Below are positions 1 through 51,000 of a stretch of DNA of 64,000 nt, in pieces (positions within the stretch are counted from its first letter, which is position 1; each line of letters opens with the position of its first letter). Position numbers and translations under genes: made by a program. This stretch comes from Yuukianura sp. NJ FZ-2021. Lineage: Eukaryota. The notes below the pieces were generated by a model. It worked only from the letters and a program-made list of their open reading frames with translations, was not told where the DNA came from and searched no databases. Where the stretch lies: the NCBI GenBank assembly GCA_046563655.1, contig CM102288.1, positions 5,518,001-5,582,000 of the forward strand. Direction: 5' to 3'.

Positions 1-18
1 TGTTTTTAAAAAAAATAG

Positions 19-1164
19 AGAGTACTACCGACGTAGTACGTGAACCAAGCTCGGAATTGGACCAGCAGGGTTTCAAGAAACCTACGAAAACCTTGAAAAG
101 TATGGCGACAAATTTTGATTTGTCGCAAATATACAGAAAACGTGTGCTGTTTTTGAAATTTTTTTTGAAATAGGAATGAGGACAATTCTCGAATTTGAGC
201 AGAACAAGAACAAGAAGTTTGACTTTTTTTCATGGACGGTTGTACTTTCTGGAGTGATGTTGGTAATCAATCCACCGTTTCATAGCATAATGATGATTGG
301 TAAGACGAAAAATTTTGACCCGACAATTCAAAAATTCAATTTCAGAAATTCCTTTTTAAAAAGTTATTTCAATATGTTCCGTTGAATGTCCACAGATACT
401 CCGTGTGCCCCTCATTTTTCTTCTTCCATTTTTTTGAATTGCGGTGACACTCAAGAGGATTCGAATCCATTTGTCCACAAAATTGTTTTCATTTTTATCG
501 AAACTTATTTCGCGCTCTTAATTTTTCTGTCGCTGTCCTTCAACTGGACGCTGATCTTCGTCGGTCTTGGTTGGATTGAAGCCGAACTCAAAGACATGAA
601 GCATTCACAAATTTCACAATTTCCAAATTTTAACAGTTTTAAAAATGATGTCTAAACTGATTCATTTTGCTTCATTGCAGTGAGAAATTGCTAAACGAGG
701 AAGAAAGCGACGTCAGCCTTGTTGGACGTTACAGAAGAATTTCCAGCCTCACTGCTCTTCTCAACGACAGTTTTCGGCTCTACCTGCAGTGGTTCCCCAC
801 ACTACTCCTCGGAATTGTCTCATTTCTGCTCTACGCATGTATCAAATTCCCCAGCGTCGGTTGGCGTGCATATGGAATGTTTCCGTCTTGTCTCATTCGT
901 TGTTCATTCGAGTCATTTACGCCGCTCGGACTCGCTGGGCAGGTCAACCAGAATTGCGTTAATTTTCTGGCACATTGGAAACGCGGTAAGGCAGGTCAGA
1001 CAGTGGAGGAGAAGCGACATCGTCGCCAATGTCGCCGAAGTTGCAGGGTGATTCAGTGCACTGCAGGGGGAATGTTCACTTTTGAAAATTCCATTGTTCT
1101 CACGACAGTCAGCAACTGCATTTTACTCACAATGAACCTCCTTCTTTTGAAAAGTTTCAACTAG
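19..1164 (+). CDS. Gustatory/odorant receptor-like 7TM protein, copy 1 (5'-truncated by window edge; exons ~19-69 or ~19-99, 174-299, 397-600, 681-1164)
   Basis: Same exon structure as, and high similarity to, the complete paralogs at 5923 and 9737; hydrophobic helices; C-terminus RSCRVIQCTAGGMFTFENSIVLTTVSNCILLTMNLLLL resembles the TM7 region of arthropod GR/OR-superfamily proteins. Family assignment is by pattern recognition. Confidence 0.7.
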
Positions 1165-2025
1165 ATTTACAAATTATTTCACAAACTGTAAAAGTTTGGG
1201 AATATTTAAAAATTTAAACCCTGATTAGCTAGTTTTAGCAAGAATTGAGTTATTCTAGGAACTTTTGCTGCTTTTCAAGAGGTTGAAATTTCCAAAGAGA
1301 ACTTTCATTCAAACTTGTTATATTTTGCAAATCACCTTTCTCAGAATTTCAGAAATACTAACGTAAGTTAAAGAAGACTCTTTAAAACCAATAAATGTAT
1401 TAGTCCTCACGCCATGACAAACCTTGGTTTTGTTATTCCAATTTTTTTTACAGACGTGCAAGGACTACTACTTGAAATTTGCATCACAAATTTTAAAATC
1501 TGCCAAACAATTTGGGAATTAAAAAAAAAGATTAAAAAAAAAAAAAAAAAAAAAAAAATTGGGAAATGATGTAAATATTAGTAGGTCAATATTAAATCCA
1601 AAAATGTAGACTGAACAAAATTTAAGCATGAAGTTTTTTAGTTCTTAAACTTTCTTAATCAAAATTTTGTTAATTTTACGATGAACTTTCCAGATACAAG
1701 CCTCCACTACACGTACGGCAATAACTACCAAATTGGAATTTATTTTGAAAATAAAATTTAACTGCTCAAATGCGCCTGCGCAACTGACATTGAGTTTGTA
1801 TTTGGCCTTGTTCAACTTTAATGTTCCCTTGGAGTTTCCAAAGAGCTTTAGCTTCAAAAACTCCGTGTGTTGCATCACAATGACAAAGGACCTTAAAAGT
1901 TCCCATCACTTCTGACAGTATATAATTAACTTTTGTAAAATTTCGATTTCCAGTGTATTTCTTGCTTTCAGCACGCAAAAGTTGCAATAACTTGAACTTT
2001 CAAATCAAAAATTAGAACTTCCGAA

Positions 2026-2760
2026 ATGAATCGCTTCATTTTTGCTACTTTCTGCGTTGGACTCGTTTTTGTACTTTTCGAAAATTCAAGCTGTGATTCT
2101 CCTCCAGGTAATCAGTTACCACCCAATTTTTTTCCCAGAACTAACACTAAATTTTTAAACCTAGCGCTATTTCTAATGTGGTAATTTCATTATTTTTTTA
2201 AATTTTTAAATTTTGAAGTTAAGGACGCATGTTTTTCGAAACCGTGTCCTCCTGGACAGACTTGTGTGAATGAGCCCAAACAATGCTTCACCACGCCGTG
2301 TCCTCAGTACACATGCACCCCACGAACTGTCAGTAAGTCATGTTTTGGAAAATTTGTAGTGTTGAAACAACAAAAATCAAATCTGTGAAATTTCAAAAAC
2401 TCATCTTAAATTCACTGAAACATTCAGCTCTCCAACTCTTCAGCTCTTGGAGTTTGAAGAATACAAAGAACTTATTTAAAAAAATGTTTTTTTTTGTTCG
2501 GTTTGTTGTGCTTAGGACCTTGTGAAACAATGAAGTGTCGTGCTGGCTACCGTTGTGAAAACAATATCAAGTGTTCAGGTAAAGTGTGCGGGGAAGTGGG
2601 CGAGTGTGTTCCAGATCCTGATCAAGGAACGACTGGCAAATGCCCTACGCAAGACTATTCAGACTGCGTTTATGAGGATTGTACGAAAAGTGGATGTGGG
2701 AAGGGGTTGCTGTGCTGTTCCAAACCTTGCGGTGGAACATGGTGTGTGAATCCAGCTTAA
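2026..2760 (+). CDS. Secreted cysteine-rich protein: signal peptide, two follistatin-N-like Cys repeats and a C-terminal WAP (four-disulfide core) domain; 3 exons
   Basis: Exon 1 [23 protein letters not shown] (signal peptide); exon 2 [29 protein letters not shown]; exon 3 ends [40 protein letters not shown] (8-Cys WAP pattern). GT-AG introns join in frame. Confidence 0.8.
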
Positions 2761-3199
2761 GTCAACCCCAGATGAAAAAAAAATCCAGGAAATAAATTTT
2801 ATTAGCAACTGCTCCTTAGGTTGACTGGAATAACTTGAATTAACCAAAACTTATCTAACATACAACATTATGCTAAATCTAACCTGGTTTTCCAATGAAA
2901 AAAAACGACAAATTTTTGAAAATTTTGATCATGTAAGACAATCTAACAAGTAGTTCTGCTAAAGTTAGACCAGAAAATCAAAAAAGTGTTTGGGAGAAAA
3001 AGTTGTTTAAACAATTTAAAGTAAACAAAGGCTCCGAAATCTCTTCCACAAAAATGGCTTCTATGATTTATTCTTGTCATAAAACTACAGCAGAACTTGG
3101 CTTTGCGAGTTGAAATTATCGTTACTGAATTTTTTTCAGCATTAAGGTGTGCGGACACACTGGAAACTGGGGGTCAAAATGCCGCTGTAACACCGCCAC

Positions 3200-3481
3200 G
3201 CAAAAATGGTTTTGGTCAGCGTAGAAATGTCGTACAGTGACCTACAATATATCAAACTTTAGGCAAAGACTTGATCTAGTACTATTACGTTGCAAACTTA
3301 TTTAATTCCAAGTGTAACTATGCAGAAAAAGGGGCTGAATATTTGTGTCCATTTTTTTCATTGTTAGAATTATAATTTCATAATTTTAAAACGTAATAGT
3401 ACTAGATCAACTCTTTTCCTAAAGTTTGATATATTGTGGGTTACTGTACGACATTCCTACGCTGACCAAAACCATTTTTGC
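3200..3481. mobile_element. MITE-like inverted repeat (~92-bp imperfect arms, ~98-bp spacer)
   Basis: 3200-3291 (gcaaaaatggttttggtcagcgtag...ctagtactattacgtt) is the reverse complement of 3390-3481 with scattered mismatches. It may lie within a larger TTAA-flanked unit at 3146-3729. Confidence 0.6.
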
Positions 3482-4264
3482 ATTTCAATGTCGCAGCCTC
3501 AGAAAAGTTGTTGACAAAACCCAAACGACGGCAACCGAACTTGCGTCAGTTTTGTTTGTTTGAAAGTGCATACTTTTTTTTTATCAAGGTATTTGCACTG
3601 ATCCTTTTTCACCACTCACGAGGGTGTTTCTTTTTGTCGATGTCTGCAACTTTTACTAACTACACAAGCTCGGTTATCGTGGTTACTAAATTTAACGATT
3701 ATTGTTTATTAGACGCATAACACACGTCCTTAAACCAACCCAAAAAAAGTTAGGCACAAATAGCATAGTAAAAAAAAGTTTGCATGAATACACTACTTTA
3801 GATAAACCCGTTTCCAAATCAAACAGCGACTATTGGTTTTAAGATCAAGGAATGCAAAAACACGTTAAGAGTCCACAGTGAGTCATCCGTAAAGTGGTTT
3901 TGAATTTGCATTGTGATGAAAATGCAATCTGAAACTGCTTACTCGAATGTTGTTGATAACCTATGCTGTCGGTCGTTTCAGAGTAATGTCGACGCCAGAA
4001 CAAAGACGCTGTCTAAAGGAGATAACAGAATTCGGTGCGATTTCAAGAAGTAGCATGAATTATCAATTCTGCACAACAAAGCAAAGATTAGTAACATTAG
4101 TAACAAGAAGAAAAAAATTCAGCTTGGTTTATTTTATTAGGCAGTTGAAAATTGGTTGGAGTACAGAAATAACTGTTAGCTTTTCTCGTTTTTTTACGCA
4201 GAAAAAGCAGATCGAAATTTTTTCAAGGTCTTGAAAATTTATTGAAAAGGACGCCAGACGAAAA

Positions 4265-5266
4265 ATGAAGGTCAACTACCAATACGCCGGTCATGTCAAG
4301 TTTGTGGGAATTTTGGAAATTGTGAGAAATTAAATTTCATAAATATATGTTTATATTTATGTAGAAATATTTATAAAAAAAGAAGAATAGCACAGAAATA
4401 TTTATTATGCTAACCTCAATAATCAACTTTCAACAAAAAGGAAAGTGTCGCTAAAATCAAAAACTCATATTTCTATGACTTTGAATTTGCAATGAAATTT
4501 TTAGAAATAAGCCTCCGTGAAGTGCAATTTCGTGTTAAATTGATTAATTTATTACTTAATTATAATTAATTGGCGATTAATTTATTTTATTTTATTCACT
4601 TATAGATCTTCCAAGTATTGTCCACCCTCGTTGTATTTGGGCTAGTGGCTATTCTGGCAGTGGGAACTGGTGCAATGTTTTCTGTCGAAAGTGGCCAAAA
4701 ATATTACCTCCTTTCCAACATCCTTCACATACGGGATGCAGAAAATTCAATTTCTGGAGGGATGATTGCTTTTGTAGTCATTCTTGGTAAGCACTAAATC
4801 AGTTCAACAAATTTTGACATGTTAAAAAATGGAAGTGTTAAATGCCTTTTGCGTTCTACAGTTCTTGTGGTGATTTTTCAATGTTGGATGGTCCACTTGG
4901 TGTTTTCTGGGGGACAAAAGGTTAGACATGGAAACAGGAAAAATACTTTGTGTTAAAATGAACAACAACTTCACACAAAAATTAGAAAAATGGAATATTC
5001 TGCCCAAAAAAAAATGTTTTTTTTTCATGTTTTTCTAGCAAAATGCTGGTCGTCTCACTATTTGGTACATTATTCAATCAATCTTTGCTGTCTTCCATGT
5101 CCTTGGCTTTATTGGTGTTCTCGTGCTTAAGTTGCCATTGTTTTGCATCATTATCGGCATCCTGGAACTTGTTTACCGAATCTACGCCATCCATGTCGTC
5201 CGCTGCCATGCTGCCGAGATCAACGAATATGTCAACAGCCGATTTTCCATTCAAAACCAAACTTAA
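4265..5266 (+). CDS. Small four-transmembrane protein of unknown function (LAPTM/tetraspan-like topology), copy 1; 4 exons, ~175 aa
   Basis: Spliced ORF MKVNYQYAGHVKFVGILEI/IFQVLSTLVVFGLVAILAVG...ILV/LVVIFQCWMVHLVFSGGQK/QNAGRLTIWYIIQSIFAVFHVLGFIGVLVLKLPLFCIIIGILELVYRIYAIHVV...; canonical GT-AG; conserved in the paralog at 8193. Confidence 0.75.
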
Positions 5267-5922
5267 AATTATCCCTAAGAGCTCAATAAGGCTTTGGATA
5301 ATTGCAGCTTTTTATCGAAAACAACTCAATAAATAGTTGTACTTTTACCTTACCTTTCATGTTACTAGCTCTCAGAAATGAGTAAAGGCACTTATCTTAC
5401 TATCTTACACAAATTCGATAGCAATCATCTTGATGTTTTTTAACTAGCTCTAGAAAAACAAGACATCGATACACACGTATCAATGTTTTGAGTTTTTGAA
5501 ATGTCTTGTTAGGAATAAATGCCACAATTATGTAGCATTTCGTGCATTAGTTTACGCTTCACCCCACATGTTGTTCCACTGATGAATGGCATACACTTAG
5601 GTCATTATGTCAGTCACATTTCAAATTGCTAACTGAAAAGACTTGTCTATATTGAAAAATAACAAATTTACAACAACAAAAAAGTTTAAAGATTCAATCT
5701 GCTTGAATATTGTGTTTTGAAAGAAACACAAACAATTCGGCAGGTGAGATTAAACAAAAATTAGTATCTATTACCGAGGCACTACTTATGGATTTTTTAA
5801 TTTTTTCTTTTCCCAAAATCATAAAATATTTTGAAACATTTCTGCAAGAAAAAAGTAACTGATTCAACACTTTTTTCAAATTTAGAAAAAGACCCAAGCA
5901 AACAGAAAAAACAAAAGTTCAA

Positions 5923-7448
5923 ATGATTTCAGATCTTGGATTTTGGTTTCTTCAAAATTCACTTTGGTTCATCTGTTTTTGTCGAATGGCTCCGTACAAG
6001 TGGAATGGAGAGACGTGTCAACTTGAATTTTTGACGTCGTGGTACGATCGCATGCTTTACGTTGTCAATCGTACTGTTGCGTTTTTACTTGCTCTTTTTT
6101 CAACTTGTCGATTTGTCCAATCATATTTGCATCACAATTCAAATTCCAAAAATTTCGTTCCGCGAATTGCTGCGATGAATATACTGTGGGGTTTAGCATA
6201 CTTTATGGCAGCCATTGCTTTCTACCAGTACGAGCGCAAGAAATCGAATGCTCGCCTTTTTGGAAACGCTATACTCAAATCCATCCAAGCAACCAAAAAA
6301 TGTAAGACTCAAATTTTCAAAATTTAAAAAAAAACTTTTAAACTGGTTTTTTTCAAAAAATAGATACTGCTGCGACGGAAGTGCTTACACCTGGTAAGAC
6401 ATTTTGCAATTTCTGCAATGTTCTCGGAAAACTTACTGTTTTTAAAAGTTTTTTCAATTATTTAGGAATGACAATTTCTGGAAATAAGCAGAACAAGAAG
6501 AATGCAATTGACTTTTTTTCATTTACGGTAATTCTTTCTGGAGTGATGTTGTTCATCAACCCACCGTTTCATAGCATAATGATGATCGGTAAGAAGAAAA
6601 ATTTTGCAACTGCAATTCATCAAAAATTCAATTTCAAAAATCATTTGTGAAAAGTTTTTTTCAAAATTTGTAATGATTACAGATACTCCATGTGCCCCTC
6701 ATTTTTCCTCTTCACTTTTTTTGAATTGTGGTGACGTTGAAGAGGACTCGAATCCATTTGTCGACAAAATTGTCTTCATTTTTGTCGAAACTTATTTCAT
6801 ACTCTTATTTCTCCTTCCACTGTCCTTCAACTGGACATTCATCTACGTTGGTCTTGGTTGGATTGGAGCCGAACTCAAAGACATGAAGCACTCACAAATT
6901 CCAAATTTTAAATTTTAAAAGTTTCACAAATTATGTCTCAACTTCACATTTTGTTTTATTGCAGTGAGAAATTGACAAATGAAGAAGAAAGTGACGTGAG
7001 CCTTGTCCGACGTTACAGACGAATCTCCAGCCTCATCGCTCTTCTCAACGACAGTTTCCGGTTCTACTTGCAGTGGTTCCCCACACTACTCCTCGGAATT
7101 GTCTCATTTCTGCTTTACGCATGTATTAAATTCCCAAGTGTCGGATGGCGTGCTTACGCTGGGTTCCCGTTATGTCTCGTTCGCTGCTCATTTGAGTCAT
7201 TTACGCCGCTCGGGCTCGCTGGGCAGGTCAACCAGAATTGCGTTCATTTTTTGACGCACTGGAAACGCGGCGGGAGAGGTCAAACGGAGGAGGAGAAGCG
7301 ATATCGTCGCCAATGTCGCCGTAGTTGCAGGGTGATTCAATGCACTGCAGGGGGAATGTTCACTTTTGAAAATTCCATTGTTCTCACCACAGTCAGCAAC
7401 TGCATTTTACTCACAATGAACCTCCTTCTTTTGAAAAGTTTCAACTAG
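5923..7448 (+). CDS. Gustatory/odorant receptor-like 7TM protein, copy 2; 5 exons, ~405 aa
   Basis: Exons ~5923-6301, 6364-6393, 6467-6588, 6684-6887, 6965-7448 join in frame if intron 4 is GC-AG. Size, multiple TM segments and C-terminal motif fit the GR/OR superfamily. Confidence 0.75.
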
Positions 7449-8192
7449 TTTTACAAATTATTTCACAAACTGTGAGAGTTTAGAAATATTTAAAAATTTA
7501 AACCCTGATTAGCTAGTTTTAGCAAGAATTTAGTAATTTTAAGAACTTGTGCTGCTTTTCCTCGGTGTTTTATTTCACAAGGCAATTTCATTCACGTTCC
7601 ATTTAAAATATTGATAAAAAATATTTTGCCATCACTGGTCACAATACAGCGGAACTTGGTTTCGCAAGTTGAAATTAGCAAACTGGGTTTCTTTCGGCAA
7701 ACCAACGCAAAAAAAAAGTAAAACAAAAATCACTGAAATCCCACATTAGACAAACCCGTTTCCAAATGAAACAGAGCCTGTATTAGTCTTAAGACCAACA
7801 ACTATAATAATAAAAGAGTCCTTAGTCACTCATTTGCTATAAAGCGGTTCTGAATTTACAGTGTGATGAAAATGTAATTTGAAACTGCTTACTCCAATGT
7901 TGTTGATAACCTTGCTGTAGGTCGTTCCAAAGTCATGTCGTCGAAAGACGCTGTCCGATAGAGAGATGACGGGAAGCGGTTATAATTTCTTGGAAGGAGA
8001 CAAATGAATTACAAATTCTCCAGAACAAAGCAAAGAATAAGCAGAAGAATAAAATTCAGCGCCTGTTTTATTAAGCAGTTGGAGATTGGTAGAAGCAGAG
8101 TAAACAACGCTTAAGTTTTTGTTTTAGTTGCACAATAAAGGAAATCGAAGTTTTTACAAAACCTTGCATTTTGCAAACGACGCCACAAAAAA

Positions 8193-9106
8193 ATGACGGC
8201 CAACTACCAATACGCCGGTCATGTCAAGTTTGTTGGAATTTTGGAAATTGTGAGAACTTTAATTTCATAAATGTATATACATAAATATTCATAAAATGAA
8301 ATCGAACAACAATATTTCCTAGAAAGTTAACTGCATGAAACAACTTTTAAGAAAAAAAAGTTTCATTAAAAATCTGAAAACTCAAATATTTCATGAATGT
8401 TGAACTTTCGGTAAAATTTTGACAGATCTTTCAAGTTTTGTCGACGCTCGTAGTATTTGTTGCGCTGGCTATGCTGGCAGTGGGAGCTGGTGCCATTTTT
8501 TCAGTAAGAAGTCGCAGCCAGTATGACTTTCCGTCCAACACAATTCACATTGACGACAACGCAGCCCGTGATGCACAAAATGCAGTTTCTGGAATGATGA
8601 TTGCTGGTGTAGTTATTCTTGGTAAGAACAAAATCCGTTGAACAAATTTTGAAAATTTTTGAAAAATTGTCAAAAAAATGGTAGTGTTAGATAACTTTTG
8701 TGTTCTACAGTTCTTGTGGTGATTTTTCAAGCATGGATGGTCCACTTGGTGTTCTCTGGAGGACAAAAGGTTAGGCTTGCAAAATACAAATTATTTTTGA
8801 AAAAAAACAACGATTTCACACAAAAATCAGAAAAATCAAATATTCTTTGAAAAAAATTTTTTTTTTATGTTTTTTTAGCAAAATGCTGGTCGTCTCACTA
8901 TTTGGTACATTGTTCAATCAGTCTTTACTGCCTTCCATGTCTTTGGCCTTATTGCTGCTCTCATGATTGAGTTGCCATGGTTTTTCATCCTTATCGGCCT
9001 CCTGCAACTGGCTTACCGAATCTACTCCATCCATGTCGTCCGCTGTCATGCTGCCGAGATCAACGAGTATGTCAACAGCCGATTTTCCGTTCACAACCAA
9101 ATTTAA
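8193..9106 (+). CDS. Small four-transmembrane protein, copy 2; 4 exons
   Basis: MTANYQYAGHVKFVGILEI/IFQVLSTLVVFVALAMLAVGAG...; same intron positions as copy 1; stop TAA at 9104-9106. Confidence 0.75.
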
Positions 9107-9736
9107 AATTATCTCCAAGGGCTCAACCCAACTTTTGAATTATTGGACAATTTTTATCGGAAACAACTAACTAAATAGTTGTACTTTTACCTTAACTTTC
9201 ATGTTCAATTTCTGAATGTCATCTCTGTTAATAGCTCTCAGAAATCAGTAAAGGCACTTATCTTACTATCTAACACAAATTCGATAGCAATCATCTTGTT
9301 CACAGTGAAATAGCTCTAGGGAAACACGACATCGATACACATTACACAGTCATTATCACAAAAGCGTCCCCATAAACACAAAATGACGCACAAGATTCCC
9401 AATTAAAAAACAATTTAAATTCGGCAAACATGGTTCCGATTTTATTGGCTTTATAATTTGAACTATCTTTAAAGCGTTAGCTCTCTACAGCCAACCACTT
9501 GTAAGAACAACGTAAACTTTCCTGTTGTATAATTTTTTTAGAAACTTGTTTTTTAATGTAATGCTTACCTTAGAAATAAATGCTACTTTTATTTAGCGAT
9601 GTTTGCAGCAGTTTAGGCATATACATGTCCTATTATTGACACTTGGTAGCCCTTATAAGTATGAGAAGGGAAGCTCCATGTCACACACTTCATCTGCATT
9701 GTTAACTGAAAGACTAGTCTATTTTGAAAAGTTGAA

Positions 9737-11277
9737 ATGATTTCTGATTTTGGATTTCGTTCTCTCCAAAATTCACTTTGGTTCATCTGTTTTTGTCGAA
9801 TGGCTCCGTACAAGTGGAATGGAGAGACGTGTCAACTTGAATTTTTGACGTCGTGGTACGATCGTACGATTTACGTTGTCAACCGTACTGTGATATTCTT
9901 ACTTGCTGTTTTTTCGAATTGCCGATTCATCCAATCATATTTATACCACACTCTAAATTCCAAAATTTTGCTGCCGCGAATTGCTGCGATGAATATTCTG
10001 TGGGGCTTAGCATATGCGATGGCAGCCATCTGCTTCTACCAGTACGATCGGAAGAGAACCAACATCCGCCTGTTTGGAAACGCTATTCTCAATTCCATTC
10101 ATGCAACTAAAAAATGTAAAACAGAAATTTTCAAAAGTAAAAGAAAAAGTAATTTTCTAAACTTGTTTTTCAAAAAAATAGGTAGCACAGCGACCGAGGT
10201 ACCAAGACCAGGTAAGAAATGTTGCAATTTCTGCAATGTTCGAAAAACTTTTGTTGTTTTTGAAAGTTTTTTTTTCATATAGAAATAAAGACAATTTCCG
10301 GAAATGAGCAGAACAAGAAGAATGCAATTGACTTTTTTTCATTTACGGTAATTCTTTCTGGAGTGATGTTGTTCATCAACCCACCGTTTCATAGCATAAT
10401 GATGATCGGTAAGACGAAACATTTTGCAACTACAATTCATCAAAAATTCAATTTCAAAATTCATGTGTGAAAAGTTTTCTTCAAAATTTGTAATGATTAC
10501 AGATACTCCATGTGCCCCTCATTTTTCCTCTTCACTTTTTTTGAATTGTGGTAACGTTGAAGAGGACTCGAATCCACTTGTCGACAAAATTGTCTTTATT
10601 TTTGTCGAAACTTATTTCATACTCTTAGTTCTCCTTCCGCTGTCCTTCAACTGGACATTCATCTACGTTGGTCTTGGTTGGATTGGAGCCGAACTCAAAG
10701 ACATGAAGCACTCACAAATTTCAAATTTTACAAATTTCAAATTGTAAAAGTTTCACAAATTATGCCTAAACTACACATTTTGTTTTATTACAGTGAGAAG
10801 TTGATAAACGAGGAAGAAAGTGACGTCAGCCTTGTCCGACGTTACAGACGAATTTCCAGCCTCATCGCTCTTTTGAACGACAGTTTCCGGTTCTACCTGC
10901 AGTGGTTTCCCACACTACTCCTCGGAATTGTCTCATTCCTGCTCTACGCATGTATCGAATTCCCAAGTGTGGGATGGCGTGCATACGCCATGTTCCCATC
11001 TTGCCTCATTCGCTGCTCATTTGAGTCATTTACGCCCCTGGCACTTGCCGGGCATGTCAACCAGACTTGCGTTGATTTTTTGGCCCACTGGAAACGCGGC
11101 AAGAGAGGTCAAACGGAGGAGGAGAAGCGACATCGTCGCCAGTGTCGCCGAAGTTGCAGGGTGATTCAGTGCACTGCTGGAGAATTGTTCACTTTTGAAA
11201 ATTCCATTGTTCTCACAACAGTCAGCAACTGCATTTTACTCACAATGAACCTCCTTTTGTTGAAAAATTTTAACTAA
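9737..11277 (+). CDS. Gustatory/odorant receptor-like 7TM protein, copy 3; 5 exons
   Basis: Paralog of copy 2 with the same intron phases; open frame across exons; intron 4 inferred as GC-AG (10708-10793). Confidence 0.75.
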
Positions 11278-12128
11278 ATTTTTTAAATCTTACAATATGA
11301 ATATTCTTTGAGAAAAATTTTCAACGTCCTATTGAGAATCTGTAAATTATTTCAATTCTGAAAAGAACTGATTTTGTTCGTTTACCACTTTTTGTTATCG
11401 TGGGTAGTGCACTAGACTGAGTTTTTTCTTATGTATTTTAGCTGCAGTCAATTTAGAAAAAGGTGTTTGTTATATAGTTAATTTATCGTAACACCAAAGT
11501 GTGCCATAAAAAAATAAGTAAATGTTTTTTTGTGGGAGTTGGCTATTCTTAAAACAAATTGTTTATGTAATACACTACTGGAACTTGGTTTAAAAAAAAC
11601 ACAATTTTGTGCCATCTCTTGGTAGTAAAGTCAAAAAATTCATAGTAGCATCATTAGGTCTGAAATAAAATCTTTATTTTTGGTAACAAATTGTGTCGGA
11701 TTTGTCAGAATGTTTCAAAATTGTCCTGCATTGTAAGTCAAACTCTGTGCAGTTAACACAGAGTTAAACGAAGTTCATACATTTCTTAATTCTTTTGTGA
11801 TTTCTTTTTCTACAAACCTTCAACAAACAAGCTGCAAACACACATTACTGAAATAACTAGCAAATTAGATGTCTAACCTCCACGTTTTTGTACTTAAACT
11901 TTATGATCCATTGACGTCGTCTATATCACTTCAGCTTATAACGAAAAACTCCGTTTGTCACATCACAATGACAAAGGAAGTTTAAGAGTTCCGTCGTCCT
12001 TGAAATTATTTATGTAATTAACGCTCAGTGGATTTCAATTTTTAGTACGCTTGCTGCCACAACTAAGACCAACGTTTGAGTAAAAAAAAAGTTGAATTTC
12101 AAAAGCGAGAATTTCAAAAATAGCGACA

Positions 12129-17509: not shown

Positions 17510-20500
17510 ATGACGGATGTTTCTAGCGGCTTGAGAAATGAAATCAAACCAATTAACCCGGAAGTTTCGCACCGAATATGTTCGGGACAGGTAATGCCGC
17601 TAGAGATTTGGACTGACTGTTACTAAAAGCATCATGGTTAATTGCTATTTCATTTTTAGGTTATTGTGACTCTGGCCACCGCCGTTAAGGAACTTGTTGA
17701 GAATAGTTTGGATGCAGGTGCCAAAAGTGTTGAAATCCGATTGGTTGACTCTGGAAGTAAACTTATCCAGGTCGTAGACAATGGAAGCGGTGTTGCTGAA
17801 ACGAATTTCGCTGGCCTTGGTGAGTACGAACAGAACAAATCGTAACCGTGGCAGGAAACCCGTTAGTATAGTCTCAAATTTTGGAAAAAATCACAACTCA
17901 TGCAGTAATTACAAGAGTCCGCTTAAGTCCGATTGTAGATTTGATTTCAGCATCAGCATCCTATTCGGCCACAAGTTTCCCAACGCATTACATAGTAATT
18001 TAAGATGGAAATATGATATCACTATATTTTTTAATGTGTCTTTTATATCTGATAGCTCGGAAGCATTGTACATCTAAACTGAAAGAATTCGAAGACTTGA
18101 ACTCGATTGGTACATTTGGATTTCGTGGAGAAGCTCTGAGTTCGCTCTGTGCTCTATCCAATATGACCGTGACCACGCGGACCAAAGACTACAAACAAGG
18201 ATTTGAAATAGACTATAACCAGCAGGGGGAGATCGTCAAACAGGCGACAGTTGCCAGGCAGCAAGGGACGACCGTCTCTATTCGCAACATCTTCAGTCCA
18301 CTTCCGGTCAGACACAAGGAGTTCCTGAAGCATTTGAAGAGGGAGTTCAATCGCATGGTGACTGTGCTCTACGGGTACTCCATTGTGGCAAAGGGAGTGA
18401 GGCAAGTGACTAACTTTTGGAAAATTCTTGATCCTTTGGCTGCTAAACTATACTTGCTAATTGTGTAATAACGAGTTGGTATTTTCATTTTTTCAGGATA
18501 AGTTGTACGCATGAATGCAACGGAAGCACATCAAACGTCCTCTGCGTCCCAGCATCAGTGTCGACCAAGGAGAGGATCGGAAGTATTTTCGGGACCAATC
18601 AGGTTTGAAACTAATTCAGAATCAAAGCACTGTAGTACTTGCTTGGATTTTAGATATCCTGCTTTACATAAACTTTTTTATGGATGCTCGTCTGTAGTGT
18701 TGTGTATGCTGAATAAGATTTATTCAAGTGGCTGAGTGGCAAGTACACCTAAGAAACTGAGAACCAGAATGAGGGTGAGAGTGTGGCTTTTATACTAAGT
18801 AGGACAAGGAAGAGAACAAGGAAAAGAAGCACAAGGTGAGTTGGTTTGTGAAGGTCCTTACAACAAAGAAACAAGTTGTGAAGGTTGATTGTAATTATTT
18901 CCTAATACATTACACTACCTTCCTCTTTAAGTTTGGAAACTACATAGAAATTGAAAGTACGGAAACATGGTTCCATGTAAAGAAACTGCATTCATGCAAA
19001 AAGCATACGGAAGAATGGTTGTGTCCTGTCAACCTAAACCTTATAAGTTCCAGGAGGTGGTCGTGCTCGTTGTGGATATCTGGGTTCTGCTGGAGCTGGA
19101 GCTTCTGCTGTTACTGGAGCGTCTGCAGCAACCTCTGTCAGTTCCAGTTGATCCGAATTTCCATCTTGGTCATCGTCATCGAAAACTTCTGATTTCGGTT
19201 TTGGAGCGTCCAGGATTTGATCTGCATGTCGCTTCATTTGTTCTCCATCGACATCAATCTGGAAAGTCACTGGCCCCGTCTGACGAAGGATAATTCCGGA
19301 TGACCACTTCGGAGCGTTTTTCGAAAACGTTTTGACCCAGATCCGTTGTCCAACCTGGAATTCTCGAACTTTCGTTTTCTTGTCGTAGTTCGTCTTTTGT
19401 TTGAACTGAGAGTAGCCCACTTTTTCTCGAACATCAGGGCGTACCAAGTCCAGTAAAGTTCGTAACTTTTTCCCTTGTAGCAATTCCGCTGGAGATTGTC
19501 CAGTAGTCGAATGCGGTGTTACCCGGTAGGTAAACAGAAATCTTTGAAGTGCCAAATCTTTATCTTCCCCTGCGGCTTTGAGTGCCTTCTTAAAAGTTTG
19601 GATGAAACGTTCAGCTTCTCCATTTGAACGGGGATGATAAACAGAGCTGGTGGTGTGACGAATGCCATTGGATTCGCAGAAACTCTTAAATTCTTGCGAA
19701 GTAAACTGTGGTCCATTGTCACTTACGATCTGCTGCATTATTCCAAATCTGCAAATTGATTCTCGAATCTTCGAAATCACTGCCAGGCTTTTGGTATTGT
19801 TGTTCATGTTATAAACCTCCGGCCATTTCGAATGAGCATCGGTGATGATCAGCCACATCTTGTTCAAAAATGGTCCAGCCAGATCCACATGAACACGTTG
19901 CCAGGGACGTTCTGGAAACTCCCATGGATGCAGTGGCGAACTGGGTGGATTAGCTCGGTTTTGAACACAGCGTTCACAGCGTTTGCACATCTCTTCGATT
20001 TGGACATCAATGCCAGGCCACCAGACGTATTGTCTTGCAAGCGACTTCATTCTCACTATTCCAGAGTGAGACTCGTGTAGTTCGTCCAAAATCTTTTTCT
20101 GGAGCGAAGTTGGAATTATAACTCGAATTCCCCACAAGATAATGTCTTGAACGATTGTCAGTTCCTCGCGTCTGAGGAAGTACTGGTAAAGTGGATCGAC
20201 CTTAAGCATGCTGGAAGGCCATCCGCTGGAAACATGGTGATAAACAGAGGAGAGTAACTTATCTCGGGAAGTTACGGTTTTGATTGCTCTGGCTGTCACA
20301 GGAAGAATATCCAGAGTAGAAGATGCAACAAGGTTGACCTCCAATTCGACCTCTGACGTGACCTCAGTGTTTGCACCATCGGTGTGAACCGGATGACGTG
20401 AAAGAGCGTCAGCGTTACCATGATCCAGGGTTCTGCGGTATTGTATGGAGTAGTTGAACTGACTCAGAAAAAGGTTCCATTTCTGAAGTCTGGTTGCAGT

Positions 20501-28079: not shown

Positions 28080-30113
28080 TCACAAATTCGCAGGTCGAAA
28101 GACGTTGAACCCATCGGCAGCCGTACTGAGTAATAAGCCAGGAATTTGGGAATGCCAGTGCACCTCCTGCAAGAAACAAAGAAAAAGTATTAGGAGGTGA
28201 AGCAATTCCACTCGTGCTGCTATTTGATACTTCTAAATTATAAGTGTTCCATTTCAGTGACTCCAAAATAATATTCATGTAGTCCAGAACTAGATATTAG
28301 TTTACTCACCTTGATGTCCTGCTGCCCCTGATGTACAAAAAGTAACTGCGGTGGCACGTCCTGTAAAAATGAAAACACAGGACTTGGACAATTCATCTTT
28401 TCGCATTTGAAATTAGAAGAAAAACAGGTGAGGTTTTTAGCTAGCGTCTTACAACGTCTTCTTCAGTTGTCGTCTCTTCCGTGTCCTTTTCAACTGACAA
28501 ATCCCAAACAGCAATCTGGTCATCCTCTCCTGCCGTAGCCAACACTGTAGACTCGTGTGGGCTCCATTCCACGGAACAAATAGGTGCCTTGTGATGATGT
28601 CGAAACTCAGCCACGGCGTCTCCCTTGTCGAAAGTCCGCAAATCCCAGATTTTCAGGGCACAGTCGTCACCACCGGAGGCAATGAAAGTGTCCCTGCGAT
28701 TCCAGTGGATCACATTGATGTCCTTGTCATGCGCATCCGCCTTCGTCACAAGACTCCCTTTGTTTGGCTTCGCTCTCGCATCCCAAATTCGAATTCTAAA
28801 AATCACGGTATAACAATTTGATTGAAGTTTTTTTTTGTTCTGAAGAAAAAGAAGTAAACAACGGGAGTCGTCTTACGTTCTATCAACGGAGCAGGAGGCG
28901 AAGACGTTCGGCTCTGTGGGTGACCACTGAATGTCCTCCACAGAAGCGGAGTGTCCATCAAACGGTCGCTGGTCAATTGTCCATGTGGACTCATGTGGTC
29001 GCCAGACATGGATGAATCGTTTTGTGTCGCCTGTAGCCAGGACACCAGGTTCCATGTGTGACCAGTCCATAGCAAAACCTTCATCACGATGCCCCTTGAA
29101 CTCAAAAACTGGACGAGGCTTGTTCTTCAGCTTGATGTACTCTTGCAGTTTCTGAGCAAATGAGTAAACCAACGTCAAAAATCAAAGTGTAGGTGCCAAA
29201 AATCAAAAGAACAATTTACCTACCCGAGTGTCATCGAGAGCAGTTAGAGGAATGGTGAGATCCCACAGACAAACTTTCCCAAGCTCTGACCAACTGGCAG
29301 CGAACGGTTTATCTCCCAAAAATTTAAACTGAAATTGAAAATTATAACGTTGAATTGTAAAAATGAAGGTTAGAAAGTCATTTCATTATTACCCGAACTC
29401 GATTGATCACTCCGTGATGTGGGATAAGGGCTACGGTTAGTTCAGGTTTCTTGGTGAGTTGCTCGTCTTCTGCCCCACCTTCGTCTTCTGATTCATCACT
29501 GCTCAGCTCATCATCACTTGACTTCGGCCTAGTTTTATAAACGTCACTCATCTAGGAATAAACGACAAAATAAAAATCATGTCAACTTAATTTGGAACAA
29601 GGGTACAATTCTTCTAGAAGGCTCACTTTCATTATCATCAGGTTGTTGGCATGTGACCTCTGAGCTTGTGTTCCACTGATGGCATAAGCGGTAATAGGAA
29701 ATGAAGTGCGATTGTCACCCAGATTGTCCGGAATAATATCGAAGCTGAGGCAGGGCGCAGACGTAGTGAAAGTATGGAGTGTCAAGTACTCAGACTCCTC
29801 GCAAACCTGTTCAAATCACAAACCAAATTTAAATGGATGGAGATCAAAATAAAAAGCAAGGTAAGGCAAGAAAGAGACTCGCCAGCTTCTCTCCATCTTT
29901 GATTTCCATGCCTGGCAAATATGTTTTCCGTGTTTTCGATTTTTTAGATTTTTTTCCAGCATCAGATGCAGTTGTTCCCGTTGTCACCGATCCCGAGGGT
30001 TGTTCTGAGTCTTCTTCAATATCTTCGTACTGATCGTCGTCGTCCATCTCCGCATCAACAGCGTCCTCTTCCATAACTTCATCCTTGACTTGAATGAGGT
30101 TGTCTTCGTCCAT
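28080..30113 (-). CDS. GRWD1: Glutamate-rich WD repeat protein 1 (Rrb1 homolog); 8 coding exons
   Basis: Acidic N-terminus; [78 protein letters not shown]. The first coding intron is GC-AG (29807-29882). Confidence 0.95.
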
Positions 30114-38800: not shown

Positions 38801-39377
38801 CTGGATCCGAAGCACTGGAACTGGGAGCCTTTTTTCCACCGCAAGTGCTGGACGCGAGACAGAAGAAGCAGCGTGACAGCATCTACTACAACTACAAAGG
38901 CGGCATCACGCATCCACCGTGTTTCAGTTACGTGGAATGGGACATCTACGACCGACCTTTGTACATTCCAAATTCTATGGTAAAGTTGTCACTAATTCAG
39001 CAGTGAAGCAGTCATAGAGCAGCAAAAGTAATACGTGTCATGTGACATTTTTTCAGTGGTTCGACTTCCTGTACATGCACTCGGAGTTTGACGACACAAA
39101 GTACATCGCTGGCAACTACAGATTGCCGGTCCATGTGTATGTAGAAGCCTTGGACAGCAAGAGGACGGAATCTTGGACGAGCAAGAACGAAGAGGAAAGA
39201 CAGAAAGTATTGGCGAAGATGGCCAAACGAGACTTGCGCAGAAGCAAACCCTCAGGCAGAGATTCCGACAATTACTACTACACAGACTTGAGCTCCACAC
39301 CAAAAACTCCGTCTGAACTCAACCCACTCATCGCCACTGCTGCCATCACACAGATACTTTTTAGAACTATGGGTTGA
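35825..39377 (+). CDS. Secreted alpha-carbonic anhydrase-like protein, probably acatalytic (CARP-like); ~11 exons
   Basis: Signal peptide MKLITLTIVVTVLQV; QSPMDIDT; LERIHIHFGENETVGSEHTLNNLTYSMEIQF; YYNYKGGITHPPCFSYVEWDI; GNYRLP. All introns are GT-AG and join in frame. Confidence 0.85.
37278..38003 (-). mobile_element. 5'-truncated non-LTR retrotransposon (L2/Crack/CR1-like) 3' end in a CA intron
   Basis: Minus-strand ORF resembles a LINE ORF2 C-terminus (YMLIIWA...IRFIY..RKRD...LQWL...LP..L....F...L). It is followed by a 3' UTR ending AATAAA-(CTCAAA)n. Confidence 0.7.
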
Positions 39378-45000: not shown

Positions 45001-48000
45001 CTCTCCACTCTGTTTCTCGTTCCACAACCTAAAAGCAAAACCAGAAAAAATTTTTAGTTTTCCTTTCAATTTTACTTATTTTTTCAAATTTTCAAATTTT
45101 CGTTTCAACTTTTTGAAAAATGTCTCTACCTCTGCGAGGATTTTCGTAAAAGGTTCCTGTTTTGACAATTCGACGAGATTGAGCCACGTGATGTCGGAGA
45201 TCCATTTGAACGGTTTTGGCTGAACCGCTGTCAGATCTAGCGAAGCGCCTCCTGTTCAAAAAGAACAAGGGATACAAAAATATAAAACCATAAAAGAAAA
45301 AGTAAACATTTGAAAGAAAATTAAAATTTTCAAAATCTGAAATCTGACCTTTGATGAGGACCATGAACTCGTCGTGGGTGATGTGGCCTTCGTGGAGATG
45401 AATTTTAAGTGCCATTAGCAGTGTGAAGAGGAATCTATCTTTAACAAAAAGCGCCCTCTGCACAAACTGCCAAACTTCGATATTGATTCTGCTGAGGACG
45501 ATGGAAATCCTCTCTTCAGTGCTCACTCCACGGACGGATAGTTTGATCGAAGAGTCAAACAGATTGAGAAACTGTTTGAGAGATGTCTGGTACATTGAAT
45601 TGACCTTGGCCAGCTCAACCACTAAAAAGTACAAAACACTTCCTCTGCTGGCGATTGGACGAAACTCGTTCCGCGCAGCCGTGATCTTCTGCTCAGTTTC
45701 TTCAGAAACTTCTAACTTTTCCTTTACTTCTTCCGCAGTGGTTTTAGTTTCACGCAGAACGCGGATCAGTTCTTCATCGTCAACCAACGAACCCTGTGAA
45801 AAGTTTACAATAAAGTATTTTTTTAGAATTTTGACCTTCAGTTTTCAAAATTTTTAAATTTTATGAAAAAACAAACCTTTGAAGTTGACAGTTTGAGAAG
45901 AAGACTGTCTTCCAGCAACTTCATACTTCGCTTGTTCTGCATTACGGACTCAAACAAAGCCATTCTCTCCGCTTCCAAATCGGCCTTCTCCATCAAAATC
46001 ACTCGACCTGAAATGATGTAAGTTATGTAAATTATGTTATGTAGGTATGTAAATTTTTAAAGTAAGAGTTCTTTTTTAAAAGATGTACCGAGCAACTGAT
46101 CTTCGAGTCCCTTCATGGTGACAGTGAAGTCGATAATTGACGTTTTGGCGCTGATTTCTGGAGTGTAAAAGGGGTTGGCGAGTTTAGTTGTGATGTAGAG
46201 CATGAATCCTCGCATGACATCGCACTCTTTGTCACCTACGACCACTTTCTCAATTGTTCCTGACTTGATGAAGTTCTTTTCCAGAACATTGTCCAGCACT
46301 GGGTCCAGTTCCTCTCCAACGTCCTCGATCAACAGAGGGCGTCCCAGACTCAGGCTGTCTTCCAAGTGGTTCCGAAAATACTTGTGGTTCAGAGAAGTAA
46401 TCTTCAAAAAGAGAAACCAAAATTAAAAACTACTTGCAAATTTTCGACAAGTCATTTTCTGTAGCATTTCTAAAATTTTGAGTGCCATTAGATCATTTCC
46501 GGCTTCCTTGGCTTTGATCCAAGCTTTCCCTTGACTCTGCGGATCCACTAACAACGGATACGAAGATCCAGTCGTTACTATAATTGCGTTTTCAATTGAC
46601 AATTCGTCATTCGGCAGACCTTGGAGTGTCCACTCAGAAATCTACACAATGGTACATAAAATAATTAAAACAATACTAGAAATAATTAAAATATTATAAT
46701 AATTAATTAAAATAATTAATTGTTTACTTCAGATGACTCCACCAAAAGAGACTGCGGAGTGAAGCCCTCTGTATGTGGAATGTTGTACTTGGTGATCAAC
46801 TTCAACGTCTGATTGGACAACAGAGCTCGATACTCTTGGTTGAATGGACCGGAATACGCTAAGAACGACGTCGTACTCACAATATCTCCGACAAGTCTGA
46901 AAGAAAAAAGAATTATAAGAGGAGTCGTACCCACGACACCCTTTTTCCAGGAAGACGCTCTAGCCAATTCGCAGGAGACAACTGTCTAAATCTTACCTTC
47001 CCATGATTTCCTTCAGTTCTTTGCTCTGATCCGTCCAGCGTCTGTTCTCTCCGCTGAGTCCGTCAATGAGTGCCAACGCAGTAGACATTTTCCTGCGACA
47101 GGTTTCTGCAGCATCCGTCAGTTGCTCAGTTTTCATCAGAGCCGAGTTGTACTCCATTTGAACAGACTCCAGTTCGATTTCTTTCTCTTTTAGCTCCTCC
47201 TCCAGTCGCTCTAAATCTGAAACTGCCGTTCGATGTCTTGCTTCCTGCAGAGCCAAGTTAGCCTTCAGAGGTAAAACTTCTTTGTTGACTCCGAAGAAGA
47301 ATGCCATGGCTTTCGTCCAGCTTAAAAGTCCCGCCACGTCACCACAAACTCTCTTGGCATCGTCCATCTGATAATCGTCCATTCGGAAGTAAGGCTCCAG
47401 CAGGTCAATGATCTCCTCGTTGATCAAATCCTTCGGATAGTTTTGCAACTGAACCAGAAAAGTAGTGCTGGACATCATCTAAAAAACACATTCAAAAAAA
47501 TAATTCAATGTAATCAATTACATCATTTTATGTAAATTCGGCGTCCAGGTAGCTGAACGGCTTATTTGAGTTCATATATAGTACGCCTTGTATTGACGAC
47601 ATTAATGTAATATCAGAAATTACCTTGAGGGCTTCTGCCCACGATGGTTTAGGGCAGGGTAGCTGTGGATCAGGAAATGTCCAATGGAGTTTCTTCTGGA
47701 AGAGAATGAGGACGCAGTCCATGATGCGCATGATCAGATGTGGAGGACGACCCAGTTTCCGCACTGTGGCAATATGTGCTGGCAATATTGTGTTCAGAGC
47801 TGCTTCAGCTTCCTACCCAAAGACAACATTTCTAATAAATACAATTTACTATGAATATGGCTAATTAGATTGTCAGTTTTTAGAATGTGAACCTCCAGCG
47901 CAGGTTTCGCTGCTTCCAACTTCTCCTCAGCGATGGCTCGATCCGCCTCGATTTCTTTTACCTAAATGAAAACATGAAATGCGTGCGTAGAATTTTTTGA

Positions 48001-51000
48001 AAGCGCTATGTAATTAAAAGTAAATCATTTAATGTCATGTACCAGTCGTTCAGCAGTTTCCTTGCTGTTCTGTACACGGTTCCTTATGATTTCGGCCTCT
48101 TCGGCTCGTTCCTTGACTGAAGACAAGACGCGTTCGGCTTCTGCAGACGCCACTTTCAAATCCTCCTCCATTTCTGCCAAGTTTTTCTTCAGCACAGTCA
48201 CACTCACCGCTGCCTCCCGCAACTTCTCCAGCCCAATCTCCATTCTTTTTGTAGAATCTCTCACATCGTTCAACTTGTTGCTGTATACAACTTTATACGA
48301 AGTCAGGAACTTCAGGTATGACTTCGGAGTCACATGGGCAGAACGACGAAGTCTAAGAATAATTAAAATAATAAAGTATTTTTACTAGAAGATTTTCATA
48401 GTTTTACAAATTCTGAGCAAATACTTTTTTAAAAACAGTTTTTTTTCAAAAACCTAACTATTTTTCAAGCTTACCGTTGAGAGTACTCTTCACAGACGTT
48501 GGCGACAGAATCATGGATGGATCCGAGGACGTAGATGACGTTGCGTTTCGTGTCGTCTGAACACTCCATTGGAAAATTCGTGATGAAATGTTCAGCTACT
48601 GCGACTAACGCATTTTTAGGCCACGGTTGGAGCCAGTTAATGGTACAACCGGAAATCAAACTCGGAAACTTCATGGCCCGGTTTCGAAATTTCTCACCAA
48701 CCTAAACAAAAATTTCAAGATTCTTAGACAAATTTAGTTTCTGAAAAATTATCATAACTTACTGGCGAAAAGCAGAGAACGACGTGGAGGTACTGCTTCA
48801 TTCGCGTGATGAAGAAGTTGAATACGTTCTCCGGAGTGGCCGGTTTCTTCGGCATCTCTCGGCGCATGATCGGCGTCAGTTCGGTGATAATCTCAGCATG
48901 TTCATCGCGATTGAACAAGTTGCAGATGAAACCAGAAGACAAAACGTTGTTCAAGTATTCTAAAAACACTTCCTCCTTGATGTCTTGATCGGAGAAAATA
49001 AAAGTTGTGCCTTTCCCCTGTGCTCCACAAGTCCTGTACAAAACTTTCAGATCCTCCAAGAAGTTGCTCAAATTGTAGGACCTGAAATCAAAAATTCCGG
49101 AAACAAATTTAAGAACAATGCAATATTTTCAAAATCCAAATTTGAAATTATCCAAATTCCAGAACAGGGTTCGAAAATTACGGTATTTTTGCCGAAAACT
49201 ACGTAACTTACGTAATTATCGTAACTTACGTAATCTACGTAAGATTGTAATTTTCAAAACAAGCCGCCTGCATCCCACTCCCATCCCCAAACCATAAACT
49301 ATTAATATCTACTATCTAATTGCGTTTAAAATCAAACCAAGGCCTGATAGAAATATACTGCGGTAGGCAATATTTACTACTATTTTATTTTTAAGACTAA
49401 ACTAACACACTTAACGCAATTAACACAAATAGTTCGAGAAACATAACACTAATTAATCCACTGACATCACATCTAACTCTTCCTTAGGCTCGCTGCTCGC
49501 TCTCAACAATTAGACTCTGAAAATGTTAAAGTGAACATGACGTACTTGGCCCAATTGATTCGGAGTCTTTGCCAACGTTTTGATGTTTCTGTAAGTGTGA
49601 TTTCATCCTGTCCGGGGTTCCTGCATGTCTCCAATCACACAACTTACAATTTGCCCAGGGGATCTTACTGCCCGGGTTGGGTTCAAGGTCAAAATCGTTC
49701 CAAATCGGATCTCTGACTCGTGGCATTTCAATAACAGCCAGTTTAAACAACAGAAAGAAAAGCTACGACGAATATCCTGGTATTTTTCGAGCACACTGCT
49801 CGAAAAATATCCTGGTATTTCTCGAGCAGACTGCTCGAGAATTATCCTGGTATTTCTCGAGCAGACTGCTCGAAGAATATCCTGGTATTTCTCAAGCAGA
49901 CTGCTCGAAGAATATCCTGGTATTTCTCAAGCAGACTGCTCGAGAATTATCCTGGTATTTCTCGAGCAGACTGCTCGAGAATTATCCTGGTATTTCTCGA
50001 GCAGACTGCTCGAAGAATATCCTGGTATTTCTCGAGCAGACTGCTCGAGAATTATCCTGGTATTTCTCGAGCAGACTGCTCGAAAAATATCCTGGTATTT
50101 CTCGAGCAGACTGCTCGAAGAATATCCTGGTATTTCTCGAGCAGACTGCTCGAGAATTATCCTGGTATTTCTCGAGCAGCCTGCTCGAAGAATATCCTGG
50201 TATTTCTCGAGCAGACTGCTCGAAGAATATCCTGGTATTTCTCGAGCAGACTGCTCGAGAATTATCCTGGTATTTCTCGAGCAGACTGCTCGAGAATTAT
50301 CCTGGTATTTCTCGAGCAGACTGCTCGAAGAATATCCTGGTATTTCTCGAGCAGACTGCTCGAAAAATATCCTGGTATTTCTCGAGCAGACTGCTCGAAG
50401 AATTTCCTGGTATTTCTCGAGCAGACTGCTCGAGAATTATCCTGATATTTCTCGAGCAGCCTGCTCGAAGAATATCCTGGTATTTCTCGAGCAGACTGCT
50501 CGAAGAATATCCTGGTATTTCTCGAGCAGACTGCTCGAGAATTATCCTGGTATTTCTCGAGCAGACTGCTCGAAGAATATCCTGGTATTTCTCGAGCAGT
50601 CTGCTCGAGAAAAAACCGAAAAAATAATCATCTAAATCACTGCTCTTTTGTTATTTTGGACTTCTCCCGCTCCCCTGACTCCTACGCTGTCTCCCTCCCG
50701 CGTAAAATTCAAAAGAATGAAAATTTCGAAAATTACAACCCCTCTGAAAATTACGTAACTTACGTACGTAAGTTACAGGACGTAAGTTACAGCCTTCGAA
50801 CCCTGTTCCAGAATTCCTTGCCTGGTCAAAGTCACTTGAAAAGTTTTGTATCCAGCTATGAAACTTGAGAGTTTCGTGAGACTTTGTTTGCCCGATCCAC
50901 CAACTCCGACAAGTAATGAGTTCCCGCCAGGACTTCTAATGATTCTAGAAATTTTTACTAAGTTGATCATAGCATCTGAGAAGAAAACGAGATTCATCGG

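Follow-up and report, generated by a model that had tools for sequence, protein, structure and literature searches.

GC-AG introns in a 64-kb window of the springtail Yuukianura sp.: a local excess that includes two donors with almost no predicted U1 pairing

Introduction

Introns that begin with GC and end with AG are already a known class. In five model species, GC-AG introns of the U2 type account for 0.37–0.87% of U2 introns (PMC1557818), their donors usually match the consensus better at the remaining positions (PMC1557818; PMC3167603; 10.1101/479493), and exonic enhancers of the GAA/CAA type support weak human GC donors (PMC3167603). The present report concerns such introns in a stretch of 64,000 nucleotides (nt) of the springtail Yuukianura sp. 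NJ FZ-2021 (assembly GCA_046563655.1, contig CM102288.1, positions 5,518,001 to 5,582,000), which as a whole is called the window, and in which GC donors were found in PMS2, GRWD1, an axonemal dynein heavy chain gene and three copies of a GR-family gene.

Among springtails, the annotation of Folsomia candida contains 1292 GC-AG introns in 120,839 (1.07%) and 14 GA-AG introns, as given in PMC7072748, and that of Orchesella has only 18 GC-AG introns in about 92,000, a count that is read here as a pipeline effect. In a table of 489 animals (S8, assessed by eye) the GC-AG share lies mostly at about 0.5–2%, with 3.3% in Oikopleura and 4.6% in Diaphorina, which also has many other odd junctions. The copepod Eurytemora affinis and the tunicate Oikopleura dioica use GA or GG donors in about 10–12% of introns; these donors depend on an exonic AG and are described as recent acquisitions (PMC5714493; PMC7072748), and the GC-AG counts are 3560 of about 183,000 introns for Eurytemora and 2324 of about 70,000 for Oikopleura (PMC7072748). 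Springtails are reported to be depleted of minor introns in PMC10639083. A literature search on springtail GC-AG introns and non-canonical donors, most subscription journals being outside its scope, returned that paper and its preprint, which deal with minor introns, and no paper on point.

GC donors in the window

The intron catalogue made for the window comprises 120 introns in 16 gene models and rests on sequence and homology. Of these introns, 79 lie in homology-anchored models and 41 were set by open frame or by eye; introns of untranslated regions and the long intron before 61578 are omitted, and the shortest intron is 54 nt. Junctions were evaluated with a spliced profile-to-genome aligner in three modes (GT donors only; GT plus GC with a 4-point penalty; any donor starting with G), with a match score against an 11-letter consensus, and with duplex energies predicted for the 5' end of U1 snRNA (small nuclear RNA). 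A sequence-only reading of the same DNA had placed GC donors at 601, 6888, 10708 and 18402 on the plus strand and at 29882, 46485 and 50821 on the minus strand, amounting to seven of roughly 120 introns at five independent positions. All seven dinucleotides are present, and the catalogue independently gives 7 of 120, or 5 of 108 (4.6%; exact confidence interval 1.5–10.5%) once paralogs are collapsed. The introns are as follows, a double slash marking the exon end.

601..680, plus strand: predicted intron 4 of GR-family copy 1, donor GAA//GCATTCAC, 80 nt, phase 2; alternative GA at 598
6888..6964, plus strand: predicted intron 4 of GR-family copy 2, donor GAA//GCACTCAC, 77 nt; alternative GA at 6885
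10708..10793, plus strand: predicted intron 4 of GR-family copy 3, donor GAA//GCACTCAC, 86 nt; alternatives GA at 10705 and in-frame GT at 10744
18402..18496, plus strand: PMS2 intron 3, GC-AG, donor GAG//GCAAGTGA, 95 nt, phase 2; compensated, a textbook GC donor
29807..29882, minus strand: GRWD1 first coding intron, GC-AG, donor CTG//GCGAGTCT, 76 nt, phase 0; compensated
46402..46485, minus strand: GC-AG intron of an axonemal dynein heavy chain gene (DNAH5/8-type), donor ATG//GCACTCAA, AAG acceptor, 84 nt, phase 0; uncompensated
49082..50821, minus strand: dynein intron, GC-AG, donor CAG//GCAAGGAA, 1740 nt, phase 2; compensated, containing a 1641-nt element with terminal inverted repeats (TIRs)

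On balance, these are probably ordinary GC-AG introns of the major spliceosome, and their local excess probably reflects chance and the post hoc choice of the window on a genome-wide rate of about 1–2.5%, not an altered spliceosome.

Junctions fixed by homology

In PMS2, GRWD1 and the two dynein introns, GC at +1/+2 and an AG 3' end occur at the position that the protein requires. Nearby GT sites were considered for all four junctions and rejected, being out of frame or losing 19–84 points. Restriction of the aligner to GT costs 35.2 points at 18402 in PMS2 (7.5 of 11 consensus letters; predicted U1 duplex -6.8 kcal/mol), 18.6 points at 29882 in GRWD1, where exon 1 is dropped (7.5 of 11; -4.8 kcal/mol), 83.6 points at 46485 in dynein (4 of 11; -1.5 kcal/mol) and 27.9 points at 50821 (8 of 11; -7.1 kcal/mol). 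The Orchesella protein P0123 is colinear over the GRWD1 junction, and one GRWD1 exon has 78% identity to Orchesella cincta as against about 60% to insects. When any donor starting with G was admitted, the same four GC sites were chosen and the GA and GG options changed none of them; a GA or GG donor was required nowhere in PMS2, GRWD1 or the 49 aligned dynein introns. A single GG call, at 54099, is marginal, with a gain of 3 points, and a canonical GT reading is available at the site. The proposal that reading frames require GC at every site thus stands for PMS2, GRWD1 and both dynein introns, where homology forces it; at GR-family intron 4 GC is likely, and a non-GT donor is needed in at least one copy.

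The positions of the dynein introns can be followed in 80 dynein loci from metagenome contigs. An intron at the codon and phase of 46485 is present in 31 of them (many of the 31 being near-duplicates) and one at the codon and phase of 50821 in 4, all with GT donors. In L001, the nearest of the long loci (79% identical across 709 aligned residues), the counterpart of the window's ATG//GCACTC is ATG//GTAAGA. Since the positions are common to other loci, all of which have GT there, both GC introns would by parsimony be old introns that switched subtype. The same commonality argues against transposons having made these GC introns at new positions. The intron of 50821 contains an element at 49165–50805 (1641 nt, perfect 11-nt TIRs, 8-nt target duplication), which from its TIRs and target duplication we take to be hAT-like; it carries a palindromic tandem array with a 35-nt unit in about 25 copies, and its removal would shorten the intron to 91 nt. 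An introner-like origin of this donor was also rejected, as the element begins at +17, after the 8-nt target duplication at +9, and did not supply the donor.

Elsewhere in the dynein gene, micro-exons of 11 nt (55987–55997) and 25 nt (54375–54399) lie on the minus strand between short introns, the former coding, in our own reading, for part of the AAA1 P-loop. Long inverted-repeat (foldback-like) insertions were seen by eye in dynein introns at 52131–52765 and 61830–62510.

PMS2 and GRWD1 lie tail to tail at 17510–30113, and for each of their homologs in Orchesella cincta the longest contig given is 426,346 nt, which suggests conserved linkage. PMS2 intron 4 holds a minus-strand long terminal repeat (LTR) retrotransposon at 18698–23463, of Ty3/gypsy type by eye only, which is very recent since its two 217-nt LTRs are 100% identical. 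A tandem array lies at about 24190–24930 in a PMS2 intron, and another at about 60380–60610.

Intron 4 of the GR-family genes

The gene of copy 1 continues past the left end of the window; copies 2 and 3 form open models of 385 amino acids (5986 to about 7447) and 386 amino acids (9800 to about 11277). The label 'GR-like', first given from sequence, gains support at family level from the predicted fold of a homolog: the model of Folsomia protein P0310, which is not a window protein (pLDDT 81.8, the predicted local distance difference test), has the solved OR/GR structures of MhOR5, AgamOR28, Gr64a and Gr43a as top Foldseek matches, at E about 2e-6, in agreement with the 7TM ion-channel fold of insect GR/OR proteins. 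Pfam returned no 7TM family for nine of nine GR-like proteins, and the named homologs of these genes (4 of 10 looked up) all come from Folsomia candida or Orchesella dallaii. With the GRWD1 exon, these names make a springtail origin of the DNA very likely by homology too.

Homologs keep the stretch of transmembrane segment 4 (TM4) up to 'EL..M', and exon 4 must therefore extend to about 601. The only donors available in all three copies without a TM4 deletion are GC (offset 0) and GA (offset -3). Among the in-frame donors listed for copy 2 (6888), no GT option preserves the conserved TM4 motif; in copy 3 an in-frame GT lies at +36 and would give a 50-nt intron and 12 extra residues, and in copy 1 the use of a GT at +35 would call for an unusual AAG acceptor downstream. 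Because the loop varies in length at the junction, the homolog profile does not fix it: GC and GA score 326.3 either way in copy 1, 325.5 and 326.3 in copy 3, and 324.4 and 324.9 in copy 2, where GT scores 305.5. GC is preferred here to the GA three bases upstream, since GA-AG introns are so rare in Folsomia (14 vs 1292 GC-AG) and the GA donors of Eurytemora need an exonic AG (PMC5714493). Between the copies, the last exon (exon 5) has a ratio of nonsynonymous to synonymous divergence (dN/dS) of 0.11–0.15 at dS 0.35–0.45. All three copies are thus under purifying selection, and it is therefore likely that their common ancestor had a working non-GT donor. The presence of the site in three copies makes an assembly error unlikely there, an argument that does not extend to the single-copy sites.

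Exon 4 of copies 2 and 3 (6683–6887 and 10503–10707) has a dS of 0.05 and exon 5 one of 0.35, which suggests gene conversion or a recombinant copy. Of the Folsomia RefSeq models P0304 and P0361, the former has its last GR exon apparently fused to unrelated N-terminal sequence, and P0298 is without part of the loop at the junction; annotation trouble at the same intron may underlie both. The three copies belong to a tandem block at 1–12481, in which a GR-family gene, a gene for a small secreted protein rich in cysteine (WAP-like by eye) and a gene for a small membrane protein with four transmembrane segments are repeated about three times. A further cysteine-rich paralog lies on the minus strand, at 16244 to about 15880.

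Two donors without compensation

Dynein 46485 and the GR-family donors, each with 4 of 11 consensus letters, score lower than any of the window's independent GT donors, for which the minimum is 5. Their predicted U1 duplexes, -1.5 kcal/mol for 46485 and -0.6 kcal/mol for the GR-family site, are weaker than those of all 113 GT donors (median -6.2, weakest -1.9). GCACTCA is common to dynein 46485 and GR copies 2 and 3 at +1 to +7, copy 1 differing at +4, and ACTCA at +3 to +7 is found in none of the 113 GT donors. A donor-proximal ACTCA signal was examined and rejected: the motif is not enriched near donors (1 vs 5 occurrences), only A-runs being so. The nearest other GT is 31 nt away at the GR-family site and 37 nt away at 46485, distances reached by 14 and 7 of 103 GT donors; 46485 has no competing GT of stable U1 pairing within 40 nt, and the GAA/CAA count ahead of it is in the top 2%. 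The sequence-only reading listed these sites but did not remark that they are alike at +1 to +7 and have almost no predicted U1 pairing, and it is the uncompensated donors that keep alive its idea of relaxed recognition.

GT donors

The GT donors had been described as generally weak, which the data do not support. Their mean consensus match is 7.07 (n=102) vs 6.96 in controls (n=355; P=0.45), and G at +5 is present in 65% of them vs 60% of controls. The five deviant hexamers put forward as examples do exist, with seven occurrences, but all seven are preceded by exonic AG. Among 103 independent GT donors, 43 are of the form AG//GU and 46 of the form //GURAG, with 10 having both and 24 neither, and the two are anti-correlated (odds ratio 0.20, P=0.0003); G at +5 is found in 87% of donors where -1 is not G and in 55% where it is, a seesaw between -1G and +5G. 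The match to controls and this ordinary two-class split led to the rejection of general weakness. The weak-looking GT donors are members of the common AG//GU class, and the split between AG//GU and //GURAG is known from many species (PMC11732430).

Extent of the GC excess

Five GC donors in 108 independent introns are more than the Folsomia rate of 1.07% predicts (P=0.0063), as are the 4 in 104 that remain without the GR-family site (P=0.026); against a rate of 2% the former count gives P=0.066. As a control, the same aligner was applied to the metagenome dynein loci, which represent one gene only. Of the 80 loci returned, 29 with fewer than two gaps of at least 45 nt and four transcript-like ones (L020, L024, L027, L080) were left out; the loci left out hold seven short non-GT calls of 40–53 nt (L012, L014, three in L020, L071, L073). 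The control gives 9 GC donors in 364 distinct introns (Fisher P=0.33 vs the window), or 8 in 329 after the 47 loci are reduced to 20 clusters (P=0.32), and its GC calls are backed by score drops of 11–81. The dynein gene of the window by itself has 2 GC donors in 54 introns (P=0.64). In three control loci (L041, L042, L046) the donor CAG//GCNNGTTT has a GT four bases downstream and depends on the exon-side match, and of the 13 introns in L079 two begin with GC.

The window was singled out post hoc among at least 868 windows of the genome. At 1.07%, about 5.5 of 868 would be expected to reach 5 in 108 if all were equally intron-rich, an upper estimate that falls if most are intron-poorer. The GC excess is real within the window and does not establish a genome-wide excess, because the controls are not different and the window was picked post hoc. 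The excess seen in the sequence-only reading survives as a nominally high count, but it is not distinct from what the same method finds in dynein introns of other genomes.

Interpretation

If the introns are ordinary ones, they may have arisen singly, through GT-to-GC changes at old intron positions. In PMS2, GRWD1 and dynein 50821, normal U1 pairing elsewhere in the donor is predicted to offset the mismatch at +2. Dynein 46485 and GR intron 4 would be used by default, as the sole suitable G and probably with low efficiency: definition across a short intron (77–86 nt and AT-rich, its acceptor ordinary and any other GT more than 30 nt away) could leave that G as the cut site, and the GAA/CAA-rich exon end may aid the use of 46485. 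Several observations sit badly with this explanation. Of the five independent GC donors, two depart from the compensation rule (PMC1557818; 10.1101/479493), and all nine control GC donors score 7–9 of 11, against 4 for dynein 46485 and the GR copies. The chance of the identity at +1 to +7 between the two weak donors is 0.003–0.012, calculated post hoc. GAA/CAA counts at the exon ends of the GR family are unremarkable, and within 40 nt upstream of their donors there is a competing GT of median strength; moreover, the GT-free and enhancer features were chosen from nine tested. On the side of frequency, homology-anchored independent introns give 5 of 72 (P=0.001 vs 1.07%), although these are the genes that first drew attention to the sites, the control rate (2.4%, from one gene) itself exceeds 1.07% (P=0.027), and the 4.6% of the window would top the 489-animal table (by eye).

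In one alternative, recognition of +2 is relaxed throughout the lineage, C and sometimes A or G being tolerated more than in other animals; GT-to-GC changes would then become fixed by drift even in weak contexts, and GC-AG introns would make up at least 3% genome-wide. This alternative draws on the nominal excess over the Folsomia rate, on the uncompensated donors being weaker than any GT donor, and on the retention of a non-GT donor in three paralogs whose exon 5 indicates purifying selection. We consider it unlikely, with GT donors no weaker than in controls, GA or GG required nowhere in PMS2, GRWD1 or dynein, no difference between window and controls, and a share of 1.07% in Folsomia. The relaxed 5' splice-site recognition inferred in the sequence-only reading therefore keeps its GC calls and its nominally high count; relaxation across the lineage is not established, given ordinary GT donors, compensation at three of five GC sites, the Folsomia and control rates (about 2.5% in the latter) and a window chosen post hoc. 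A narrower proposal ties the two donors alike at +1 to +7 to a dedicated GCAYTCA class, recognised by a U1 snRNA variant whose 5' end is complementary to it or by some other factor. The identity in two unrelated genes and the lack of ACTCA among GT donors fit it, and a U1 variant has been proposed for GA donors in another system (PMC7072748). It is nevertheless very improbable: two independent sites, spotted post hoc, define the class, one GR copy departs from it at +4, the nearest locus L001 has an ordinary GTAAG-type donor at the position of 46485, ACTCA is not enriched near donors, and an Rfam scan gave 0 matches, and no snRNA gene, in the 64-kb window.

Alternatively, the weak sites may not function as GC donors. 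In that case 46485 would be a recent damaging or leaky allele in an intact dynein gene, the GR copies would use GA (CAT//GAAGCA) or copy-specific GT donors, and three ordinary GC introns would remain. With T at +2, 46485 would look like other weak donors of the dynein gene that start with GT, for example TCG//GTACTT at 54987; only 15–18% of human GT-to-GC changes, mostly in strong contexts, yield normal transcript (10.1101/479493); the GR profile rates GA and GC alike; and copy 3 has its in-frame GT. Set against this are a dynein frame open for 3755 codons over 52 introns, the presence in all three GR copies of GC or GA only, and the greater strangeness of GA donors, which are about 90 times rarer than GC donors in Folsomia and need an exonic AG in Eurytemora (PMC5714493) that CAT//GA does not provide. 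This reading seems quite unlikely.

Should the explanation by ordinary introns be all that is true, the result is a modest annotation point, in that five GC-AG positions are missed by gene finders restricted to GT. Efficient splicing at the two uncompensated donors would make them natural counter-examples to the rule that GC needs extra U1 pairing, and their short introns (77–86 nt) would be minigene-ready substrates for asking to what extent intron definition, U5/U6 contacts and exonic enhancers can replace U1 pairing. The boldest claim, which we hold to be unlikely, is that GC donors in this springtail lineage are spliced practically without U1 pairing, through a recurring GCAYTCA-like class or a general tolerance at +2, at a genome-wide GC-AG share of 3–5%. 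If true, that share would be at or over the highest reliable animal values, and this lineage would be the second among arthropods to have remodelled its recognition of 5' splice sites, along a route different from that of Eurytemora. A true genome-wide excess would place springtails among the few animals with altered donor recognition.

Other genes in the window

A C2H2 zinc-finger gene at about 32300–34000, minus strand, is nested antisense in the 2175-nt intron (31978–34152) of an ASPSCR1/TUG-like gene; the full model of this locus is not closed, and two of its introns were set by eye. At 35825–39376 lies a gene with ten introns for a secreted protein of 639 amino acids with carbonic-anhydrase-like motifs (by eye), two of whose donors, CAC//GTAA at 36769 and 37191, are very weak.

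Comparison with known systems

GC-AG introns of the U12 type, with donor GCATCCT (PMC1557818), resemble the window's introns in the GC start and, at the GR-family site, in the non-G exon end. They were rejected as an explanation, since 601 matches that donor at 5 of 7 letters and 6888, 10708 and 46485 at 4 of 7, and the dynein position is U2-type in other loci. [quoted passage not shown]

Like Eurytemora affinis (PMC5714493) and Oikopleura dioica (PMC7072748), this animal has non-GT donors in several unrelated genes. It differs in that the window requires no GA or GG donor, the dynein GC introns appear to be old, and the two weak donors are without exonic AG. A share of GA/GG donors of about 10%, as in those two species, is not seen in the homology-anchored genes of the window, and the GR-family site could be GA.

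The closest likeness is to GC-AG introns of the U2 type. The introns of the window share with them the GC and AG ends, ordinary acceptors, a switch of subtype at old GT introns and, at three of five independent sites, compensation. They differ in a share about four times the Folsomia rate, and in two sites that match 4 of 11 consensus letters and have U1 pairing under that of any GT donor in the window.

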